A stretch of DNA of 64,000 bases, from assembly GCA_951406725.2 (NCBI GenBank), contig OX597814.1, forward strand, positions 6,200,001 through 6,264,000, read 5' to 3'. The notes beneath the pieces are model-generated. The model did not search any database, had not been told where the DNA came from, and saw only the letters and a program-made list of their open reading frames with translations. This document shows, piece after piece, positions 43,300 through 58,014 of the stretch (within the stretch, counting starts at the first letter, position 1; the number at the start of each line of letters is the position of its first letter). Origin of the DNA: Octopus vulgaris. Lineage: Eukaryota. The translations under genes were made by a program, and so were the position numbers.

Positions 43300-43664
43300 C
43301 TCTCTTTTACTTGTTTCAGTCATTTGACTGCGGCCATGCTGGAGCACCACCTTTTAGTACTTATTCTATCGGTCTCTTTTGACGAACCGCTAAGTGACGG
43401 GGACGTAAACACACCAGCATCGGTTGTCAAGCAATGCTAGGGGGACAAACACAGACACACAAACATATACACACACACTTACATATATATATACATATAT
43501 ACGACAGGCTTCTTTCAGTTTCCGTCTACCAAATCCACTCACAAGGCATTAGTCGGCCCGGGGCTATAGCAGAAGACACTTGCCCAAGATGCCACGCAGT
43601 GGGACTGAACCCGGAACCATGTGGTTGGCTAGCAAGCTACTTACCACACAGCCACTCCTGCGCC
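43300..43664 (-). mobile_element. SINE family A with an internal ~40 bp deletion (left boundary of the duplication)
   Basis: CACCACCTTTT|AGTACTTATTC lacks the ATCGACCCCGGGACTTATTC segment. The same deletion is in the copy at 49495-49848. Confidence 0.9.
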
Positions 43665-43679
43665 TTATATATATTATAT

Positions 43680-43944
43680 AATAGTGTACATTTAAACACA
43701 AAAGAAAACTACCCTTTAACAGGTAATTTTTACATGCTAGAAAGAGCAGCCAACATGTCAAAACCACGATTTAATAGCAATTTTCGAAGTAAATGAAAAA
43801 TAAAAAAATAACAAGGTAAAAGTTTTTTATTTACTTCGAAAATTGCTATTAAATCGTGGTTTTGGCCGTGTTGGCTGCTCTTTCTAGCATGTAAAAATTA
43901 CCTGTTAAAGGGTAGTTTTCTTTTGTGTTTAAATGTACACTATT
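43680..43944. mobile_element. Foldback MITE / palindrome with ~115 bp arms (second copy 49864-50130)
   Basis: AATAGTGTACATTTAAACAC...TTTTCGAAGTAAAT is mirrored by ATTTACTTCGAAAA...GTGTTTAAATGTACACTATT. Confidence 0.88.
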
Positions 43945-44672
43945 TTAAAATATGAATATGTTGTCTGTTGACCATTTATACATGCTAGGTTACTGGTGGT
44001 GATATTTTATAACGAATATTCACTACCCTATATATGTATGTATATATATACGGTTAAGTAATTGAGATTCAAGTGAATTCTAATGAATTCACATGAATAT
44101 GGTCCTTAACTAGGATGCACCGGAAATCTATATGGTGTTAACCATACGACAAGTGGGGTGATTACAAATAGGAAAAAAGCAACAAGAATGGATTAAAATC
44201 TCGGTACAATCGTTTCGTACGAGGACATCTTTAATAAGCTACAAAAAATGCAGTGAATACAGATGGCTCGTACTCGTCAGCCGAAAAAACATCAGAGAAT
44301 TCCCAAACATCAAAAGGAGTAGATACAAAAGAGGGTGTAAGATTAACTGCATTGAAGAAAGTTCGATTCATGGAGATCCGATGAAAGGTTTTAAACTTAC
44401 AGAATTTGTGCATGTCTACATATAGCTCATATTGAATTGCTAATCAAGTTGTGTGAAGAAATTTTCGGATAAAGTCATGCAAAATTTCTGAAAATCCGAG
44501 TAAGAAGCAAAGTGACTGTCATATTGTGTAGAGGAACAGATTGTTATTGAAATTTACAAGAATCGCAGATAAGTTCGATTCTTGGAGATCCGATGAAAAG
44601 TCTTGAACTTACAGAATATGTGCATGTCCTTATAGTTCATAATCCAGTTTTGTGAGGAGATTTAGGGTACAA

Positions 44673-45223
44673 TCATGCAAAAATATCAGGGAATCCGATT
44701 CCCTGATATTTTAGCATTTCATCATTAATATGGTGAACAGTTTTATTCCTCGGGGCCAGTATAGCCTTTTCGCCAATCCAATCCATATTCTGATAATTAG
44801 CTTGTAGATCTGGGAACACTGCATCTCTGAGATCAGAAGGGGTCTTAACAATGTTACAAATGGAATCGATGGCAATATTACCATTTTCATCCCCTGGTAT
44901 TTTGCCTTCGCCAAGTGCAAGGAGGGTGTGAGGAAATGCTGCTGATGTGATATTACGTCGCATATGAGCACGCATATTGGTGTGAAGTTTGAGAGTTACT
45001 TCCCTTTATTTAAAAAAATATGCATTAAAAAGGAAAAAAATGATGGTAAATTATTTGTAAACTCATAGACTCATCGTAGACGTGCGCTAATACCCAGAAG
45101 GGCTCGATATGAATCACGACTATAAGATACCCGGTTTTGGTTAAACTGCATCGCAAAATGTGGGAGTAGTTAGGAATCTAAATCGGAGTAGACAGACACA
45201 CAACCTTTCTTTTATATATAAAT
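44673..45223 (-). mobile_element. Internally deleted Helitron: 5' end plus PIF1 helicase fragment (second copy 50864-51413)
   Basis: NMRAHM..AAFPHTLLALGEGK..LRDAVFPDLQANYQNMDWIGEKAILAPRNKTVHHIND is a Helitron helicase segment. The minus-strand start TTTATATATAAAAGAAAGGTTGTGTGTCTGTC resembles Helitron 5' ends. Confidence 0.8.
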
Positions 45224-46011
45224 ATTTTCGTCCTAAAAAACTTTGTATGGATTGAATGGTTACCTCTATGGAAATATATACACGTACATCATACATACAT
45301 GTGTGTATAGATGAATATATAAATACATTTAAATATCTATATACACTTTTGGGCGATCTTTCTGTTTCTTAGAGATAACTTTATCCCGTCCGATTCGCTC
45401 CAAAATTTACAAGGACATGTAGAATGAGGTGACAATGCTCGTGGGCTACCTTAGAAATCCCTATCTTAAAAGGTGTGGTTGCTAGGGGCCATCTTCCTCA
45501 CTCACCCTATTTCCTCCAGTACCCTCTCACTCCTCTACATATGACAGGCCACTACGGTTATTTAATGTAAAGTCTTCCTCAAATCATTCTCTCGCTATTT
45601 ACTCTCTTCCAAGAACATTTTCACTCACTCTTATCTCTTAGCTTCCCATACATTTTACTCATGTATCTATCAGCGTCATAGACAGAAACAAATATTACAT
45701 CGCCATCGCCTTCTATTGTCTACCTGTCAACACACACACAGTGAATTACTTTCACTTTATTCGTTGCACACTGTGTGTGTGCGTGTGCTGTATCCCACAC
45801 TAAGAAAAGCACTTGACTCATACACCACAATGTGAGTTTTCTCTAAATTTTGCTTAATTGGGGTTGAAATTTTAAAAAGTGGACCTGGCAAGACCCAATG
45901 CATTCTACTCTTAAAAATGCTAGGTAAATTGTAATTGAAGAAATCCTATATTGTAGATTTCTATAAGAGACAAAGGGAGGCAGATAAAATCTGCCTTTTA
46001 TAATAAGAGAT

Positions 46012-46177
46012 ATACAACAGGCTTCTTTCAGTTTCCATCTACCAAATCCACTCACAAGGCTTTGGTCGACCCAAGGCTATAGTAGAAGACAGTTGCCCAG
46101 GGTGCCATGCAGTGGGACTGAACCTGGAAGCATGTGGTTGGTAAGCAAGCTACTTACCACACAGCCACTCCTGTGCC
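46012..46177 (-). mobile_element. SINE family A, 5' half (second copy 52202-52367)
   Basis: tRNA-like head through GGAAACTGAAAGAAGCC. Confidence 0.85.
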
Positions 46178-46668
46178 CTGTTCAGGCTTGGATATAAACA
46201 TGTAGTGTAAAACATTCAGACATCATCATTATCTTCCCATATCCTGTGGTACATTCTTTCGCCATAGCCACAAGAATGATGAAAATAGCTCTTCCTTCCC
46301 ATTTGAAGGAAGGAGGCGTGACAATATTGACGATAGACTTGATTGATAAACCGACTCGTCCCACACACGACAGCAGTCGTTCGACATAGATAGAAAGATC
46401 GATATAGATAGAAAGATAGAAAGATAGTGGGTGGCACAAAGTGTAAAGGACGTAAATAGCGCTATAAGCGAGGGAGATAACTAGAAACATATTTGCGTTT
46501 CTAATAAGTCGAGGAAGTAAACTGTAAATACGGAGACGTACTTGCATAGCAAGTAATTTGATCTGAGATCGTGTGCTGAAACGAAAACAATTGCAGCGTG
46601 GAAGGTGTTTGTAAGCCATTTAAGAAACACACAAAAGCCGTTCGATTCACTTCAACATTTAAGTTTAA

Positions 46669-46718
46669 TTTGTCAAAATATTTTCATCGCTAAAATCCGC
46701 GACCTGTTCACTGATAAA
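46669..46718 (-). ncRNA. Minimal type-I hammerhead-like motif (variant core), copy 1 with two stem substitutions
   Basis: Homologous to 52863-52912; one stem I mismatch and one G-U in stem II. Confidence 0.35.
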
Positions 46719-46774
46719 GTCCGTGCTGCATCTCTGTAAATATTTCCCGCAAAATCTTACGTATTTGAATCACT

Positions 46775-47434
46775 ATGGCAGAAGGTACTTCTGTTAACGA
46801 TGTTGCATCAAGCATGTCTAAAAAGCGGCAAGATTACCTTGGATGGGATGATTACTTCATGTCAGTGGCTTTCCTCTCTGCTAAACGTAGCAAAGACCCA
46901 ATAACTCAGGTAGGAGCTTGTATTGTTAATGAAGATCGACGTATTGTTGGCACCGGATATAACGGTATGCCTCGAGGTTGTAGTGACGATGTTTTTCCTT
47001 GGTGCAATGAAGGTCCCACTGAGCTACAGAAGAAAAGTCTCTACGTATGTCATGCTGAGCTTAATGCTATTCTCAATAAGAACTCTGCAGACGTTCGCAA
47101 TTGCACTATGTATGTCAGTTTGTTTCCATGCAATGAATGTGCTAAAGTCATTATACAATCTGGAATTAAAAAAGTAATATTCTATTCGGATAAATATAAG
47201 GACCGAACTACCTCTCAAGCTTCTCGAATTATGTTTAAAGATGCTAAAATAGACTGTCACCAGTATCAACCTACAGACGAACAAATTGTTATAGATTTTA
47301 CTTCAATAGAAGAAAAGAAAAACCGGATTATAAGTTCAGACAGACAAAATGTTACAGCTTTTACTTCATTAGATAAAAAGAAAGACCGGATTAAAAGTTC
47401 AGATTCACACCTTTTTTCTGAACTTTCATTTTAA
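46775..47434 (+). CDS. DCTD: Deoxycytidylate (dCMP) deaminase, intronless, 219 aa, copy 1 (C-terminal 21-aa duplication)
   Basis: [28 protein letters not shown], Zn motifs VCHAELNAI and LFPCNECAK, and IVIDFTSI all align with metazoan DCTD. Intact single ORF with ACTATGG start context. Confidence 0.95.
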
Positions 47435-47640
47435 TCAGATGCGAACATAAACACTTGGAATTCATTATATTGCCACCATTGCCTTTTCATAATGATATCC
47501 TGTTATATTTTCTAGCTAAAATATTAACTGTTGTATTTTTAACGAACATTTTTATTCCATTTTGTTTTCGTTTGTGTGTACATAACATTTTAACTTCCTC
47601 TTTCTAAGAAAGTGAAACTATCCACATTTGCTCCAATACG

Positions 47641-47828
47641 CAGTAGCGTAGCTGGGGGGTGTGTGTGCATTTTGGGCCGCACTTTTAAAGAGGCTAATGT
47701 GTGTGTGTCTGTATTTATTGTATGTGTGTATAAGTAGTTATATGCTTTATATTATCTATTATAGTAATATTTTTCTGTTGAAATCCGTTTTAAGGCGGTC
47801 AATAGTTTAATTAAAGATGTGTCTATAC

Positions 47829-47881
<53 letters not shown>

Positions 47882-48363
47882 TATTACATATTATATTTTA
47901 TATTTTATATTTCTATTTCCTTGTCTATTTATATTTACTATATATGTTGTATAATGCCTTTACTGATATGTAATGGTGTAATAAAGTATTGATTGAGTAT
48001 CATCTGATGGTTGATGTTTTATTGATTTAAGTATGTTTCTCCATTTTCTAATTTTGTTACATATATATATATATATATACATGTGTATACATATATATAT
48101 ATACACAAGTGTATACATTACACATGAAATGTATTTATTTATAAACTTTAAACTGAACTTCAATTGTTTTATAAACCTAACAGCTTGGTGTACGTAAATA
48201 AACGGCGTAAATTAACGAAAATAAATTAACGGAAATACACGAAGTTGACTACTTTCACTTCTAACAACCAAAGGCATGACTGCCGTTTTTTTTTTTTGTG
48301 AGGGTCCGGGGACAGCAACTAGAAAGGCCTCCCCGGGCAGCACAGATTCTAGCTACGCTAGTG
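47641..48363. mobile_element. hAT-like MITE (second copy 53772-54466)
   Basis: TIR CAGTAGCGTAGCT / AGCTACGCTAGTG (12/13 match); imperfect 8-bp flanks CCAATACG / CCAATATT. Confidence 0.65.
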
Positions 48364-48622
48364 CCAATATTCCCTCTAACTCCATCTAATAAAAAGTTAT
48401 CCGACTTCCACCCAGCATGTTGCGTCTTCTCACTAGCTTTTCTACTACATAGCCACTATTCACTGGAGCTGGTTGATCTCATACCTATTCTACTCAGGAT
48501 CACCCGACTCCCTCTACCCTCTCGTCTCTTATTCATTTGCATAAAACACTACACCTCATCTTTCTCAGACGTTAACTCTTGGAATATCTTTTCTGGAGTT
48601 GTTCAAGAACATCAGTTACATC

Positions 48623-49358
48623 GGTTCTACTAGCGAACTGTGGTCCGGGTGCGCGCAGTCGCGCATCCGCGCTAGCTAGTCGTAAGTAGTCGATCCTACA
48701 ACGACTTTTTAACCCTAACCCTAACTTGTTTATAAAAATAATTTATTTCTTTAGTTTAAAAAAATCATTCACTTTGCATTTTATTTACTTTGTTCGAAAA
48801 ATATTATTTAATATTATTTAATGGTGCGGGAGTGGCTGTGTGGTAAGTAGCTTGCTAACTAACCACATGGTTCCGGGTTCAGTCCCACCGCGTGGCATCT
48901 TGGGCAAGTGTCTTCTGCTATAGCCCCGGGCCGACCAATGCCTTGTGAGTGGATTTGGTAGACGGAAACTGAAAGAAGCCTGTCGTATATATATATGTAT
49001 ATATATATGAGTGTGTGTGTGTCTGTGTTTGTCCCCCTAGCATCGCTTGACAACCGATGCTGATGTGTTTACGTCCCCGTCACTTAACGTTTCGGCAAAA
49101 AGAGACCGATAGAATAAGTACTGGGCTTACAAAGAATAAGTCCCGGGGTCGATTTGCTCGACTAAAGGCGGTGCTCCAGCATGGCCGCAGTCAAATGACT
49201 GAAACAAGTAAAAGAGTAGAAGAGAGTAAAGAGTAAAGAGTAATTTTCTTTGATCTGTATTCAGCCTTGAAATACAAACATACGCGGAAGTCGTTGTAGG
49301 ATCGACTACTTACGACTAGCTAGCGCGAGTGCGTGCACCACTGTTCGCTAGTAGTACC
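48623..49358. mobile_element. Mutator/MULE-type MITE with 9-bp TSD and a nested SINE (second copy 54726-55462)
   Basis: AGTTACATC is duplicated at 48614-48622 and 49359-49367. TIRs GGTTCTACTAGCGAAC..CGCGCTAGCTAGTCGTAAGTAGTCGATCCTACAACGACTT are mirrored at the right end. Confidence 0.85.
48823..49240 (+). mobile_element. SINE family A nested in the MULE MITE (second copy 54925-55344)
   Basis: Full-length match to 21404-21826. Confidence 0.92.
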
Positions 49359-52300
49359 AGTTACATCAACTTAAACAGTTTCGGAGTCGCCTACGAAAGG
49401 TCACCAGTGCAGACCCTCACAGGTCAAACCAAACCATAAAAAAAAAAAAATTAGTCTTATTAGGTTAATTATGTCTTTTTTTTTTATTTTTTATACTTGT
49501 TTCAGTCATTTGACTGCGGCCATGCTGGAGCACCACCTTTTAGTACTTATTCTATCGGCCTCTTTTGACGAACCGCTAAGTGACGGGGACATAAACACAC
49601 CAGCATCGGTTGTCAAGCAATGCTAGGGGGACAAACACAGACACACAAACATATACACACACACTTATATACATATACATATATACGACAGGCTTCTTTC
49701 AGTTTCCGTCTACCAAATCCACTCACAAGGCATTAGTCGGCCCGGGGCTATAGCAGAAGACACTTGCCCAAGATGCCACGCAGTGGGACTGAACCCGGAA
49801 CCATGTGGTTGGCTAGCAAGCTACTTACCACACAGTCACTCCTGTACCTTATATATATTATATAATAGTGTACATTTAAACACAAAAGAAAACTACCCTT
49901 TAACAGGTAATTTTTATATGCTAGAAAGAGCAGCCAACATGTCCAAAACCACGATTTTAATAGCAATTTTCGAAGTAAATGAAAAATAAAAAAATAACAA
50001 GGTAAAAGTTTTTTATTTACTTCGAAAATTGCTATTAAATCGTGGTTTTGGCCGTGTTGGCTGCTCTTTCTAGCATGTAAAAATTACCTGTTAAAGGGTA
50101 GTTTTCTTTTGTGTTTAAATGTACACTATTTTAAAATATGAATATGTTGTCTGTTGACCATTTATACATGCTAGGTTACTGGTGGTGATATTTTATAACG
50201 AATATTCACTACCCTATATATGTATGTATATATATACGGTTAAGTAATTGAGATTCAAGTGAATTCTAATGAATTCACATGAATATGGTCCTTAACTAGG
50301 ATGCACCGGAAATCTATATGGTGTTAACCATACGACAAGTGGGGTGATTACAAATAGGAAAAAAAGCAACAAGAATGGATTAAAATCTCGGTACAATCGT
50401 TTCGTACGAGGACATCTTTAATAAGCTACAAAAAATGCAGTGAATACAGATGGCTCGTACTCGTCAGCCGAAAAAACATCAGAGAATTCCCAAACATCAA
50501 AAGGAGTAGATACAAAAGAGGGTGTAAGATTAACTGCATTGAAGAAAGTTCGATTCATGGAGATCCGATGAAAGGTTTTAAACTTACAGAATTTGTGCAT
50601 GTCTACATATAGCTCATATTGAATTGCTAATCAAGTTGTGTGTGTGAAGAAATTTTCGGATACAGTCATGCAAAATTTCTGAAAATCCGAGTAAGAAGCA
50701 AAGTGACTGTCATATCGTGTAGAGGAACAGATTGTTATTGAAATTTACAAGAATCGCAGATAAGTTCGATTCTTGGAGATCCGATGAAAAGTCTTGAACT
50801 TACAGAATATGTGCATGTCCTTATAGTTCATAATCCAGTTTTGTGAGGAGATTTAGGGTACAATCATGCGAAAATATCAGGGAATCCGATTCCCTGATAT
50901 TTTAGCATTTCATCATTAATATGGTGAACAGTTTTATTCCTCGGGGCCAGTATAGCCTTTTCGCCAATCCAATCCATATTCTGATAATTAGCTTGTAGAT
51001 CTGGGAACACTGCATCTCTGAGATCAGAAGGGGTCTTAACAATGTTACAAATGGAATCGATGGCAATATTACCATTTTCATCCCCTGGTATTTTGCCTTC
51101 GCCAAGTGCAAGGAGGGTGTGAGGAAATGCTGCTGATGTGATATTACGTCGCATATGAGCACGCATATTGGTGTGAAGTTTGAGAGTTACTTCCCTTTAT
51201 TTAAAAAAATATGCATTAAAAAGGAAAAAATGATGGTAAATTATTTGTAAACTCATAGACTCATCGTAGACGTGCGCTAATACCCAGAATGGCTCGATAT
51301 GAATCACGACTATAAGATACCCGGTTTTGGTTAAACTGCATCGCAAAATGTGGGAGTAGTTAGGAATCTAAATCGGAGTAGACAGACACACAACCTTTCT
51401 TTTATATATAAATATTTTCGTCCTAAAAAACTTTGTATGGATTGAATGGTTACCTCTATGGAAATATATACACGTACATCATACATACATGTGTGTATAG
51501 ATGAATATATAAATACATTTAAATATCTATATACACTTTTGGGCGATCTTTCTGTTTCTTAGAGATAACTTTATCCCGTCCGATTCGCTCCAAAATTTAC
51601 AGGGACATGTAGAATGAGGTGACGATGCTCGTGGGCTACCTTAGAAATCCCTATCTTAAAAGGTGTGGTTGCTAGGGGCCATCTTCCTCACTCACCCTAT
51701 TTCCTCCAGTACCCTCTCACTCCTCTACATATGACAGGCCACTACGGTTATTTAATGTAAAGTCTTCCTCAAATCACTCTCTCGCTATTTACTCTCTTCC
51801 AAGAACATTTTCACTCACTCTTATCTCTTAGCTTCCCATACATTTTACTCATGTATCTATCAGCGTCATAGACAGAAACAAATATTACATCGCCATCGCC
51901 TTCTATTGTCTACCTGTCAACACACACACAGTGAATTACTTTCACTTTATTCGTTGCACACTGTGTGTGTGCGTGTGCTGTATCCCACACTAAGAAAAGC
52001 ACTTGACTCATACACCACAATGTGAGTTTTCTCTAAATTTTGCTTAATTGGGGTTGAAATTTTAAAAAGTGGACCTGGCAAGACCCGATGCATTCTACTC
52101 TTAAAAATGCTAGGTAAATTGTAATTGAAGAAATCCTATATTGTAGATTTCTATAAGAGACAAAGGGAGGCAGATAAAATCTGCCTTTATAATAAGAGAT
52201 ATACAACGGGCTTCTTTCAGTTTCCATCTACCAAATCCACTCACAAGGCTTTGGTCGACCCAAGGCTATAGTAGAAGGCAGTTGCCCAGGGTGCCATGCA

Positions 52301-52862
52301 GTGGGACTGAACCTGGAAGCATGTGGTTGGTAAGCAAGCTACTTACCACACAGCCACTCCTGTGCCCTGTTCAGCCTTGGATATAAACATGTAGTGCAAA
52401 ACATTCAGACATCATCATTATCTTCCCATATCCTGTGGTACATTCTTTCGCCATAGCCACAAGAATGATGAAAATAGCTCTTCCTTCCCATTTGAAGGAA
52501 GGAGGCGTGACAATATTGACGATAGACTCGGCTGATAAACCGACTCGTCCCACACACGACAGCAGTCGTTCGACATAGATAGAAAGATAGATCGATATAG
52601 ATAGAAAGATAGAAAGATAGTGGGTGGCACAAAGTGTAAAGGAGGTAAATAGCGCTATAAGCGAGGGAGATAACTAGAAACATATTTGCGTTTCTAATAA
52701 AGTCGAGGAAGTAAACTGTAAATACGGAGACGTACTTGCATAGCAAGTAATTTGATCTGAGATCGTGTGCTGAAACGAAAACAATTGCAGCGTGAAAGGT
52801 GTTTATAAGCCATTTAAGAAACACACAAAAGCCGTTCGATTCACTTCAACATTTAAGTTTAA

Positions 52863-52912
52863 TTTGTCAAAATATTTTCGTCGCTAAAATCCGCGACCTG
52901 TTCACTGACAAA
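52863..52912 (-). ncRNA. Minimal type-I hammerhead-like motif (G3:C8 and U17 variant), Penelope-like
   Basis: Minus strand: TTTGTCA-GTGAACA-G-GTCGC(GGATTTTA)GCGAC-GAAA-ATATTT-TGACAAA. Perfect 7-bp stem I, 5-bp stem II and palindromic AATATT stem III. Confidence 0.45.
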
Positions 52913-52968
52913 GTCCGTGCTGCATCTCTGTAAATATTTCCCGCAAAATCTTACGTATTTGAATCACT

Positions 52969-53511
52969 ATGGCAGAAGGTACTTCTGTTAACGATGTTGC
53001 ATCAAGCATGTCTAAAAAGCGGCAAGGTTACCTTGGATGGGATGATTACTTCATGTCAGTGGCTTTCCTCTCTGCTAAACGTAGCAAAGACCCAAGAACT
53101 CAGGTAGGAGCTTGTATTGTTAATGAAGATCAACGTATTGTTGCCACCGGATATAACGGTATGCCTCGAGGTTGTAGTGACGATGTTTTTCCTTGGGGCC
53201 ATAACAGTCCCAGAGAGCTAGATAACAAATATCCCTACGTATGTCATGCTGAGCTTAATGCTATTCTCAATAAGAACTCTGCAGACGTTCGCAATTGCAC
53301 TATATATGTCAGTTTGTTTCCATGCAATGAATGTGCTAAAGTCATTATACAGTCTGGAATTAAAAAAGTAAGATTCTATTCGGATAAATATAAGGACCGA
53401 ACTACCTCTCAAGCTTCTCGAAAAATGTTTAAAGCTGCTGATATAGACTGTGACCAGTATCAACCTACAGACGAACAAATTGTTATAGATTTTACTTCAA
53501 TAGAAGAATAG
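52969..53511 (+). CDS. DCTD: dCMP deaminase, intronless, 180 aa, copy 2
   Basis: Intact HAE and PCxxC zinc motifs. [16 protein letters not shown] matches the canonical DCTD loop. Ends at TAG 53509-53511. Confidence 0.95.
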
Positions 53512-53959
53512 AAAGACCCGATTATAAGTCCAGTTTCGCACCTTCCTTCTAAAGTTTCACTTTAATCAGATGCGAACATAAACACTTGGAATTCATTATA
53601 TTGCCACCATTGCCTTTTCATAATGATATCCTGTTATATTTTCTAGCTAAAATATTAACTGTTGTATTTTTAACGAACATTTTTATTCCATTTTGTTTTC
53701 GTTTGTGTGTACATAACATTTTAACTTCCTCTTTCTAAGAAAGTGAAACTATCCACATTTGCTCCAATACGCAGTAGCGTAGCTGGGGGGTGTGTGTGCA
53801 TTTTGGGCCGCACTTTTAAAGAGGCTAATGTGTGTGTGTCTGTATTTATTGTATGTGTGTATAAGTAGTTATATGCTTTATATTATCTATTATAGTAATA
53901 TTTTTCTGTTGAAATCCGTTTTAAGGCGGTCAATAGTTTAATTAAAGATGTGTCTATAA

Positions 53960-53995
<36 letters not shown>

Positions 53996-55746
53996 CATAT
54001 TATATTTTATATTTCTATTTCCTTGTCTATTTATATTTACTATATATGTTGTATAATGCCTTTACTAATATGTAATGGTGTAATAAAGTATTGATTGAGT
54101 ATCATCTGATGGTTGATGTTTTTTGATTTAAGTATGTTTCTCCATTTTCTAATTTTGTTACATATATATATATATATATACATGTGTATACATATATATA
54201 TATACACAAGTGTATACATTACACATGAAATGTATTTATTTATAAACTTTAAACTGAACTTCAATTGTTTTATAAACCTAACAGCTTGGTGTACGTAAAT
54301 AAACGGCGTAAATTAACGAAGGTATAAACCTGACGGAAATACACGAAGTTGACTACTTTCACTTCTAACAACCAAAGGCATGACTGCCGTTTTTTTTTTT
54401 GTGAGGGTCCGGGGACAGCAACTAGAAAGGCCTCCCCGGGCAGCACAGATTCTAGCTACGCTAGTGCCAATATTCCCTCTAACTCCATCTAATAAAAAGT
54501 TATCCGACTTCCACCCAGCATGTTGCGTCTTCTCACTAGCTTTTCTACTACATAGCCACTATTCACTGGAGCTGGTTGATCTCATACCTATTCTACTCAG
54601 GATCACCCGACTCCCTCTACCCTCTCGTCTCTTATTCATTTGCATAAAACACTACACCTCATCTTTCTCAGACGTTAACTCTTGGAATATCTTTTCTGGA
54701 GTTGTTCAAGAACATCAGTTACATCGGTTCTACTAGCGAACTGTGGTCCGGGTGCGCGCAGTCGCGCATCCGCGCTAGCTAGTCGTAAGTAGTCGATCCT
54801 ACAACGACTTTTTAACCCTAACCCTAACTTGTTTATAAAAATAATTTATTTACTTAGTTTAAAAAATCATTTACTTTGCGTTTTATTTACTTTGTTCGAA
54901 AAATATTATTTAATATTATTTAATGGCGCGGGAGTGGCTGTGTGGTAAGTAGCTTGCTAACTAACCACATGGTTCCGGGTTCAGTCCCACCGCGTGGCAT
55001 CTTGGGCAAGTGTCTTCTGCTATAGCCCCGGGCCGACCAATGCCTTGTGAGTGGATTTGGTAGACGGAAACTGAAAGAAGCCTGTCGTATATATATATGT
55101 ATATATATATGAGTGTGTGTGTGTCTGTGTTTGTCCCCCTAGCATCGCTTGACAACCGATGCTGATGTGTTTACGTCCCCGTCACTTAACGGTTCGGCAA
55201 AAAGAGACCGATAGAATAAGTACTGGGCTTACAAAGAATAAGTCCCGGGGTCGATTTGCTCGACTAAAGGCGGTGCTCCAGCATGGCCGCAGTCAAATGA
55301 CTGAAACAAGTAAAAGAGTAGAGAAGAGAGTAAAGAGTAAAGAGTAATTTTCTTTGATCTGTATTCAGCCTTGAAATACAAACATACGCGGAAGTCGTTG
55401 TAGGATCGACTACTTACGACTAGCTAGCGCGAGTGCGTGCACCACTGTTCGCTAGTAGTACCAGTTACATCAACTTAAACAGTTTCGGAGTCGCCTACGA
55501 AAGGTCACCAGTGCAGACCCTCACAGGTCAAACCAAACCATAAAAAAAAAAAAAAATTAGTCTTATTCGGTTAATTATGTGTTAACTTCCTTAGTTTTCA
55601 TTATGTTAGTCCCTGAAATAATTGTGCCTATTTTTAATGTTTTATTCTTGTTTTTTTTTTCGTTTAATTCTTAGATTATTCACATTGTAGTCTTTGTTTA
55701 ACTTTCAAGTTTATTTGAATTTTATTCTTTATTTCAAAAATTATTC

Positions 55747-56571
55747 GGCGATGTTTCGCTTGTCGTAGCACACGTTTCCGTCGATTTCCGTAAAAAACTT
55801 TTATTTTTTTACATAAGTAATGAGAGCGAAAGAGACTAAGAGGAAGCGATTTTATGACGAGGAAGTTTCTCTTTGAAGTCTCCGTGTGTGTGTTTAATGG
55901 GGTGTGGGAGACAGAAAGTATGTTGTGTAAGTGAAGTGCTTCTGTTAGTGTGTGTGAAGAGACAGAGAGAGTAATGTGTGAAAGAGAGAGATAACTGAAA
56001 TTTTTTACTCGATGTATGTGTATATGTATGTATGCATGTATGTGTGTGTGTGTATGTATCTATGTATGTGTGTAAGTGTATGTATCTATGTATGTGTGTG
56101 TGTGTGTGTATCTATGTATGTGTGTAAGTATGTATGTGTGTATGTATGTATGCATGGCCGATTCAGTGTAACATACATACATACACACACATACATAGAT
56201 ACATACACACATACATACTTACACACATACATAGATACAGACACACCCACACATACATAGATACATACACACACACATACATGCATACATACATATACAC
56301 ATACACCGAGTAAAAAATTTCAGTTATTTCTCTCTTTCACACATTACTCTCTCTGTCTCTTCACACACACTAACAGAAGCACTTCACTTACACAACATAC
56401 TGTCTGTCTCCCACACCCCATCAAACACACACACGGAGACTTCAAAGAGAAACTTCCTCGTCATAAAATCGCTTCCTCTTAGTCTCTTTCGCTCTCATTA
56501 CTTATGTAAAAAAATAAAAGTTTTTTACGGAAATCGACGGAAACGTGTGCTACGACAACCGAAACATTGCC
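55747..56571. repeat. ~825 bp near-perfect palindrome (foldback element)
   Basis: GGCGATGTTTCG..TTGTCGTAGCACACGTTTCCGTCGATTTCCGTAAAAAAC... is mirrored by ...GTTTTTTACGGAAATCGACGGAAACGTGTGCTACGACAACCGAAACATTGCC; ~20 bp spacer near 56153-56170. Confidence 0.92.
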
Positions 56572-58014
56572 AATTATTAATTCAAATCTTGATAAGCATG
56601 TTATTGTTTGAATTTTTCAACCATAGATTCAAATTCCTATTTCATTATATGTTTGTAATTATGTGTAAATTTTAAATTTCATCCTTAGTGTAAAATCATT
56701 CGTGAATCTAACCCCTATCAGGTTCTTTGTTCGCCCCTTGTGGGTAATAAAAAAACAGGTATGTATGTGTGTGTGTGTGTGTGTGTGTGTAGGGGTCTAT
56801 ATCACCTTAAAACACTGCAACACTTTGTACCACTCAACACACTGCAACACTTTATAACACTCTACACACTGAAACATTTAATCTAAATTCAGGCACACAA
56901 CCCCCCACCTCCCCCGAAATACTTTGTTTCCCTACTGACAAAGATCTTCAAAAGGAATTAGTGTCTTCGGTCAGATTCTGGGTCATTAGGTTATTACATA
57001 GCATCAACAATGAATTATCAGTCAATGTGTTAGTGAACAACACATATACACAACACAAACACACGCACACACACGTTATAATCTGAGACTGGTTATAAAA
57101 TAATATAGGAATGTTTTATTCAAATAAGGTAATTATCAAAAACAACAAATGGAGTAAATAAAATAACAAAACGTTATAAAAACAAAATGATCCTTCTTTT
57201 TACTAATTTTAATGACTTTCAATCAGCCACTCATATTTTCTGATAGATTATCAACCAAGAAATGATAAAGTGTAGAGTCAGTGAAGCATATGATTAAAGT
57301 GTTGAGATGACATCCACTTGTGAAGTGATCACATCCACTTATCTAACCCTCACTTAATATCTTCAGATAACAGATTATTCTCCACAAACAAATAATGAAT
57401 GTAACCTCAGTGGAAAGTGATTGTAGGGACAATGTTGCGTCAAAAAGAGATAAAAGAAATGGGTTCTATACAGCAGTACACAGCAATACCTAGATTAGCT
57501 ATAGCCAATAAGACATAAGAGATAGTTTGGTAAAGGGTCAGCCACCAATCCATTTCAACATCTGGTCACTTACAAATGGGGTGTCTTCTCCCTCTTTCTC
57601 ATAAACATTGCTACAACTGTCTTTGCTTGTCTAAATCATCTGGGTACACACCCCATTCAGCACATGACCAATGAGAACAAGATGCAAGGTAAACATGTTT
57701 CTGTCATATTAAACCTCTTCAGTGCATACCGAGTAATACACATGCAGTAGAATCACCCTATGAAGTTCTTTGTATATATACCCCTTTAAATTCAATGTGA
57801 CCGCGTGTGTACCATTGACGATTTTTTTCCTCTGTCTTCCCTTCCTTGGATCTTTCCTTTTCCTATGTTTCTGACGAAGAGCTCCGCTCAAAACGTTAAA
57901 TCCTCCTTCGTTCTTTCCTTTCCTGAGTGTCCAATAACACTGTACTTGCTCCACGTCCTCGCGTTTTCTCTTTGGGATGCGTACAAGGTAGAGGAATTAG
58001 ACAACGAAGAACTT

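Follow-up and report, generated by a model that had tools for sequence, protein, structure and literature searches.

This study concerns 64,000 nucleotides (nt) of the Octopus vulgaris genome (assembly GCA_951406725.2, contig OX597814.1, positions 6,200,001 to 6,264,000 of the forward strand), a stretch that we call the window, in which each unit of a 6.18-kb tandem repeat, delimited by self-BLAST and global alignment, carries one intronless open reading frame (ORF) for a deoxycytidylate (dCMP) deaminase of the DCTD type. We think it rather probable that this duplicated pair, copies A and B, has been under repeated positive selection on a predicted coupling loop and a helix, and that two old types of the loop have been kept. 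The principal parts of the pair, numbered from the first letter of the window, are these:

43305..49474, unstranded: tandem unit A, about 6.18 kb (self-BLAST and global alignment).
49495..55583, unstranded: tandem unit B (self-BLAST and global alignment).
46775..47434, + strand: DCTD copy A, 219 amino acids, intronless, HAE, PCNEC and GYNG intact; nearest protein O. sinensis XP_036365194.1.
52969..53511, + strand: DCTD copy B, 180 amino acids, intronless, ending at TAG (codon 181).
47003..47041, + strand: loop type A, codons 77-89, predicted by alignment to CDADC1 to be a substrate-response loop and active-site lid; shared with O. sinensis.
53197..53235, + strand: loop type B, codons 77-89, found in runs under organism labels A, B, C and D.
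47204..47260, + strand: second cluster of changes in A, codons 144-162 (helix alpha4 and the next strand).
53398..53454, + strand: second cluster in B, codons 144-162, with stepwise replacements at 156, 158, 160 and 162 across organisms.

Both proteins belong to a well-known family. The PF00383 domain is found in each (96.5 and 97.4 bits against a gathering score of 25), and the best structure match is human DCTD (2W4L, E 4e-68; rank 1 in Foldseek). The catalytic residues HAE (93-95) and PCNEC (118-122), which correspond to the HxE plus PCxxC definition of DCTD (PMC12088426, in part), are intact in A and B, as an earlier reading made from the sequence alone had already noted, and both copies also carry GYNG at 61-64, an instance of the allosteric motif G(Y/W)N(A/G). 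A and B are presumably still zinc-dependent deoxycytidylate deaminases. Profiles of the AID/APOBEC group stayed below their cut-offs (APOBEC4_like 19.9 against 26.7; APOBEC_N 20 against 25), and an AlphaFold model of B, with a mean predicted local distance difference test score (pLDDT) of 72 and values under 50 at 65-78, confirms the fold only. Elsewhere in the family, protein P0002 of Hymenolepis diminuta (301 amino acids) has two DCTD domains in tandem.

Codon by codon, over the 180 codons that they share, A and B differ at 26 of 540 nucleotides and at 19 amino acids, with six double-hit codons and a single purely synonymous change (Q128), figures that agree exactly with those of the sequence-only reading. 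The two loop types account for 13 of the 26 differences, packed into the 39 nt of codons 77-89, a concentration reached by 0 of 20,000 shuffles under either null, and within the loop every codon whose residue is unchanged is itself unaltered. Coding changes are rich in transversions, with a ratio of transitions to transversions of 9:17 against 31:11 in the flanks. Taken over all aligned sites, the flanks differ at 42 of 5513 positions (0.76%), which makes the coding sequence about sixfold more divergent (P=4e-11) and not ten times more, as had been claimed, even though the eight substitutions counted in the roughly 2 kb at 43950-46000 were confirmed. Flank rates are in fact uneven: 1.62% in the start, which resembles a short interspersed nuclear element (SINE), 0.36% (8/2200) at 43800-45999, 1.55% (12/775) in the 775 nt before the ATG (P=0.001 against the 0.36% further up) and 0.85% beyond the stretch after the stop. 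Of the near-identity of some 390 bp previously described after the stop, the part that holds lies past A's stop (47435-47827, 0/393 differences); the 57 nt from B's TAG onwards differ from A's coding tail at 11 positions, and near-identity begins only where A's own stop has been passed.

The parent of the pair can be identified. We found seven DCTD copies in the genome, all intronless: A and B, plus an array of five that lies 186 Mb away on this chromosome, at C1:192.80-192.81 Mb. The searches, in which 12 and 14 candidates were scored, give lower bounds, and no parent gene with introns was seen among those candidates. The array ORFs are identical to CAI9716572-6, proteins that NCBI labels Octopus vulgaris, and neither A nor B is present in the protein collection that we searched. 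In the same collection O. sinensis has several array-type proteins (the XP_0296 series) and one window-type protein of 219 amino acids, and one DCTD protein each was found for O. bimaculoides (XP_014791316.1) and Argonauta. Since upstream and downstream non-coding DNA is shared with the array, the daughter locus arose by duplication at the DNA level; because this DNA differs at 72 of 1656 positions (4.3%), less than the roughly 8% divergence given for O. vulgaris and O. bimaculoides (PMC6472339, in part), the duplication is probably younger than the split between these two species. Two observations on the array itself may be added. Copy p4 (G000:C1:192806206, L007) has HAG in place of HAE in an open frame, as does O. 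sinensis XP_029642106.2, so that this dead-site copy is common to both species, and residues 85, 86, 88 and 89 vary among array-type genes too (192797216-192811500; ENKNL, DNKNL, EKKNL, ENKNH, ENKNF and DKKYL in three species).

Positive selection on the daughter pair is likely, and the tests that support it are independent of the A/B flank. Our branch-site model was run with our own code, whose one-ratio likelihood of -1200.19 compares with -1200.22 from IQ-TREE, on a set of five copies that omits p3, whose tail is short, and p4, which has HAG. When the window clade was taken as foreground, the ratio of replacement to silent substitution rates (omega) was 4.4-4.5 at 33-34% of sites, and the likelihood-ratio statistic was 9.5-9.6 (P=0.002) under two codon-frequency models, a value not attained in any of 43 simulations under the null with a mosaic history of A and B (maximum 3.0). 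Background omega was 0.38, and array copies p1, p2 and p5 show pN/pS of 0.05-0.45. Amino-acid-changing divergence from the array amounts to 10.5% in B and 8.2% in A; homologous non-coding DNA shows 4.3% (P=4e-6 and 0.003). Sites at which A and B differ avoid conserved columns (2/19 against 85/145), which argues that these genes are not neutral pseudogenes. The comparison of M8 with M8a gave P=0.004 on seven copies. A class of sites with omega above 1 is found by the branch-site test, with a mixed answer from the site model, as we discuss below. Two further calculations carry no weight: per-site posteriors from the seven-copy model flag every variable site, and the match of 'derived' residues to other DCTDs (21/29 in A and 25/35 in B, against 11 and 13 expected) is confounded, because some of these residues may be ancestral and those of the array derived. 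The earlier view that both copies are derived relative to human DCTD must be qualified, given that G77, D85, Y88 and P89 of B are common in the DCTDs of other animals. Overall we regard the earlier interpretation as partly supported, in that the pair is real and likely positively selected.

CDADC1 offers a guide to the location of the changes. Its substrate-response loop consists of residues 373-390; F393 lies over the active site as a roof, where it senses sugar and alpha-phosphate, and phosphates are bound by K337 and K392. In DCTD the comparable loops touch alpha4, a helix of the adjacent subunit, in an interaction that dCTP is believed to stabilise (PMC12088426, in part). Octopus residues 68-85, 88, 43 and 87 align to 373-390, F393, K337 and K392, respectively, and alpha4 corresponds to helix 145-156 in the predicted model. 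Compared with the array, 39 positions have changed, 22 of them within the 41 residues of 68-89 and 144-162, as opposed to 17 in the 123 residues elsewhere; when only variable columns are counted, the figures are 21/31 and 13/46. At some positions a basic residue has given way, one step at a time, to an acidic or neutral one (156 R>H>D>A, 160 K>E>D, 162 R>H>D). On the predicted geometry, loop 77-89 and helix 144-162 would face each other across neighbouring subunits of the hexamer, and their changes might re-tune the response to dCTP and dTTP or the substrate gate or, alternatively, remodel a surface bound by another protein. Selection would, in either case, spare the chemistry; its target would be a surface linking activation to the binding of nucleotides, or else one that meets a partner.

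The age of the two loop types emerges from other samples and species. Comparison was made with 4 of 24 listed runs, all represented by contigs, which were guessed to be RNA (none is on record as RNA); the cross-species dN/dS rests on a partial table of differences from these runs and not on locus DNA from O. sinensis, O. bimaculoides or Argonauta. Run X1, a separate sample whose organism label is that of most matching runs, holds a 611-nt contig that equals B except for one silent change, with 0 differences over 112 nt of the TAG tail; A would account for only 39% of B's 31-mers. The possibility, raised earlier, that B's differences are consensus errors is answered by this contig. Loop B occurs in 4/4 runs, under labels A to D, the version of organism B carrying L89. 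Run X12, labelled organism C, has loop B unchanged in one contig of 431 nt (depth 5.9), and the 10 listed of 12 differences comprise 9 replacement letters and 1 silent one, with array-like G59, G115, GTC134, I135 and Y136 standing beside intermediate H156, E158, E160 and H162. S115, GTA134, F136 and D160, which A and B have in common, are missing from organism C, and S115 is absent from O. sinensis as well. The O. sinensis protein has loop A and the long 219-residue tail and is itself a mosaic, combining loop A and G115 with B-type G20, R43, K152 and D162. Loop A, for its part, has array codons at 77-80, 82 and 89, P81 in common with B, and Q85, K86 and S88 that are peculiar to it, a mixture that excludes both back-mutation and recent copying from the array.

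It follows that the flank is no clock, because both loop types predate its divergence and the genes are mosaic, and here the argument of the sequence-only reading, which had used the flank in just that way, fails. The simplest reading of these sequences is that there are two old loop types and that the remainder of the gene, together with the flanks, has been mixed by conversion or allelic recombination; selection likely holds the loop types apart, and conversion or recombination likely homogenises the rest. Consistent with this, the divergent segment is shared between species (four labels have loop B, and O. sinensis has loop A) while the flanks are homogenised. X1 and X3 each contain both tail types. 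Their 63-nt-duplicated tails are 9-10 letters from B, where A of the window differs by 19, which suggests a third tail type, and X3 also contains a joint reaching back 435 nt.

The remaining features of the locus concern its tails, its junction and its flanks:

47276..47401, + strand: 63-nt in-frame internal repeat in the tail of A.
53512..53565, + strand: former coding tail after B's TAG, in frame up to the ancestral stop.
49475..49494, unstranded: junction of the units, some 20 nt of T-rich filler where a SINE-like repeat ends, without an N gap.
46531..46733, unstranded: young high-copy element of about 205 bp, about 40 nt 5' of A's ATG, with a 9-bp target-site repeat.
52725..52927, unstranded: the same insertion of about 205 bp 5' of B's ATG, with 4 differences from that of A and a 9-bp target-site repeat.
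46193..56784, + strand: span over which the DNA is homologous in patches to the parent array (G000:C1:192.80-192.81 Mb), including upstream and downstream flank.

The 63-nt repeats in A's tail differ at 10 nt in 9 codons, and 9/9 of the changed codons alter the residue. B's stop and tail are common to runs of several organism labels, and A-to-I editing of UAG to UGG at that stop (window 53509-53565) would restore the old tail. The element of about 205 bp is represented genome-wide by 1506 candidates, with 40 copies scored at 99%, and often lies in runs of TA; it is absent from the parent array and was inserted after the duplication. In X1 and X3, contigs extend from its interior into the coding sequence, so it may supply a promoter or a 5' untranslated region. 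At 55731-56587 a palindrome resembling a miniature inverted-repeat transposable element, with 409-nt arms (89%) and a simple-repeat core, interrupts the homology to the array. A 100-residue ORF in the flank (44673-44975), which we presumed to resemble a PIF1-type helicase, had no match in Pfam, and a Helitron origin of the flank is unsupported.

A number of results weigh against our explanation and deserve to be set out together. The site model is not significant on five copies, with p3 and p4 dropped (P=0.20-0.23), the A/B tips have an omega of 4.7 that differs from 1 only at P=0.056, and the stem, at 0.86, is indistinguishable from 1. With A and B alone, the contrast of dN with dS is borderline (binomial P of 0.012, 0.050 and 0.14 at 1, 2 and 3 silent steps). 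Silent divergence from the array is 6-10%, above the 4.3% of non-coding DNA (not significantly so), which tempers the comparison of replacement with non-coding change, and the non-coding DNA beside the gene may be constrained. Zones 68-89 and 144-162 were chosen after inspection of the data, the changed columns vary in other animals too, and the contact of loop with helix is borrowed from a paper on a homologue, the loop being modelled with a pLDDT under 50 at 65-78. Among the matches listed, loop type A was seen in 0/4 runs aligned to copy B. In addition, two predicted substrate contacts of copy A are occupied by I43 and S88, the former residue occurring in 0/23 outgroup proteins, so this copy may be decaying. 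Finally, no result here bears on which agent drives selection.

One alternative is that redundant copies have simply been released from constraint, the core being kept by purifying selection while a variable surface drifts and silent changes are few through chance and conversion. There is real redundancy (six or seven copies), B is truncated, array p4 lacks its catalytic glutamate, and the weak stem, tip and five-copy results are what this idea would lead one to expect; even so we find it improbable, since relaxed constraint is the very null that the branch-site test rejects, replacement divergence is 2.4-fold above that of non-coding DNA, clustering far exceeds the expectation from variable columns, and loop B stays unchanged across organism labels while codons 156-162 go on changing. 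A better contender, though one that we judge less likely than not, is that a single locus held two ancient alleles, a trans-species balanced polymorphism like those of the major histocompatibility complex (MHC) or of R genes, which were joined in tandem only recently in this lineage. This is really a version of our explanation, differing in the history and keeping the selection. Flank divergence of 0.76% lies below the heterozygosity of O. vulgaris (over 1.1%; PMC6472339, in part), the single O. sinensis protein of this type that was found is a mosaic, X12 and X13 show loop B and the TAG tail only, the B body in X1 forks into two tails, and the DCTD genes of O. sinensis are described as lying in hemizygous DNA (bioRxiv 10.1101/2020.09.15.298695, in part). 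On the other side, X1 and X3, with different organism labels, both have two tail types, as expected of fixed paralogues, and annotation misses genes here (both window proteins were missed), so one O. sinensis entry need not mean one gene. That the tandem is an artefact, made of consensus errors or of two haplotypes of one locus assembled in series, seems to us very improbable: flank divergence is indeed at the allelic level, but X1 matches B save for one silent difference, loop A and the 219-residue tail are present in O. sinensis, and the junction is gapless with 20 nt of new sequence. Were the tandem false, the paralogues would become alleles and the divergence would still be real.

Least credible of all, and largely refuted, is an origin of the changes in hypermutation, in RNA-editing-derived copies or in a foreign donor of loop B. 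The changes are certainly densely clustered, and loop B does resemble distant DCTDs (G77 in 10/23 outgroups, D85 in 15/23, Y88 in 9/23, P89 in 6/23), but no mutation type dominates (A>G 5/52 in B), flanking DNA was copied along with the gene, and the codons of unchanged residues in and beside the loop are identical to those of the array, which a diverged donor would not give. A further alternative is a dedicated antiviral enzyme that depletes nucleotides, having switched to dCTP or escaped dTTP feedback in the manner of bacterial defence dCTP deaminases. In its favour, the changed loop is that by which CDADC1, a dCTP-deaminating relative of DCTD, gates both substrate and allostery, DCTD-fold enzymes of PBCV-1 and XP-12 have switched to triphosphates (both PMC12088426, in part), and recurrent selection is compatible with an arms race. 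Yet the kinase domain that is essential in the bacterial enzyme (bioRxiv 10.1101/2021.04.26.441389, in part) is missing, and the anti-phage model scores 74-76 bits against a cut-off of 400, equal to an array copy. At the five positions of CDADC1's phosphate-binding lysines (octopus 43, 87, 116, 144 and 146, with R/I, K, L, R and T; 144-146 lie at the edge of the alignment), B is basic at 3 and A at 2, no excess over the DCTD of O. bimaculoides or Argonauta; L116 and T146 are unchanged and GYNG is intact. The antiviral or new-substrate role put forward in the sequence-only reading is, for want of a kinase domain and of any gain of CDADC1-type basic residues, unsupported, and we consider such a dedicated function distinctly unlikely.

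Returning to the explanation that we prefer, in which selection acts repeatedly on a duplicated pair, the daughter pair stems from the five-copy array of the same chromosome by duplication at the DNA level, and we envisage that the array retained the housekeeping duty and so freed the daughter genes, a division suggested by the constraint on p1, p2 and p5. Genes engaged in conflicts typically show repeated replacement and dimorphisms that last. Here the same codons have been replaced again and again through several speciation events, and two forms have endured; for this reason we propose, tentatively and at less than even confidence, that a recurring conflict with a pathogen, a parasite or an inhibitor of theirs is the most likely driver. 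A stronger version would have the spare DCTD turned into a conflict enzyme, its dCTP/dTTP control shed or re-tuned so that nucleotide pools are distorted against a virus or parasite, with an arms race against a binder of loop and helix keeping the two forms; this we hold to be unlikely, the recurrent replacement and the dimorphism being all that speaks for the antiviral idea. Roles in the germline, in diet or in the salvage of modified bases are possible.

In most animals DCTD is a conservative housekeeping gene present in one copy. We found no report of positive selection on animal DCTD in titles and abstracts (few subscription papers were covered), and within the same coverage the only prior trace was a single mention, one sentence in the part of the preprint consulted (bioRxiv 10.1101/2020.09.15.298695), of a hemizygous tandem DCTD cluster in O. 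sinensis. dCMP deaminases are treated as salvage enzymes, octopus going unmentioned, in the relevant parts of PMC5889660. Were the conflict enzyme real, animals would have a first DCTD that serves immunity, and bacterial defence by depletion of deoxycytidine nucleotides would have a counterpart among eukaryotes. The enzyme is small and soluble and can be assayed directly, and its genome supplies both a conserved parent and two natural variants of the loop. With this pair one can test how the interface of loop and helix governs the allostery of DCTD, and whether deamination of deoxycytidine has been recruited by animals for defence, a question that is open for CDADC1.

How, then, does this pair compare with what is already known? 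A usual DCTD (EC 3.5.4.12; PDB 2W4L; PF00383) is its best match in sequence and fold and shares the single domain, HAE, PCxxC and GYNG, while the octopus genes differ in being intronless, in numbering seven, and in including a daughter pair in which omega exceeds 1 and the loop is of two types. The octopus array is the direct parent, with 78-81% protein identity to B and flanking DNA in common; its p1, p2 and p5 are under purifying selection, whereas the daughter locus has a new upstream element and altered tails. The bacterial anti-phage dCTP deaminase (NF041025; PADLOC PDLC02373) has a homologous zinc-deaminase domain but needs its N-terminal kinase, the octopus proteins being single domains of 180-219 amino acids that match a 630-position PADLOC model in part. 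CDADC1, the vertebrate dCTP deaminase (PDB 9HFQ), is derived from DCTD and has as its substrate-response loop the very loop that is changing in octopus, although it has two domains and five phosphate-binding lysines where octopus has one domain. For the pattern of variation, the closest parallels are the red and green opsins, the MHC and R genes, in which, as described for opsins and MHC-like families (PMC3924837, in part), a peak of coding divergence stands between flanks of low divergence and haplotypes extend across species, as here; unlike those islands, the octopus case involves an enzyme of nucleotide metabolism, whether its two forms are paralogues or alleles.

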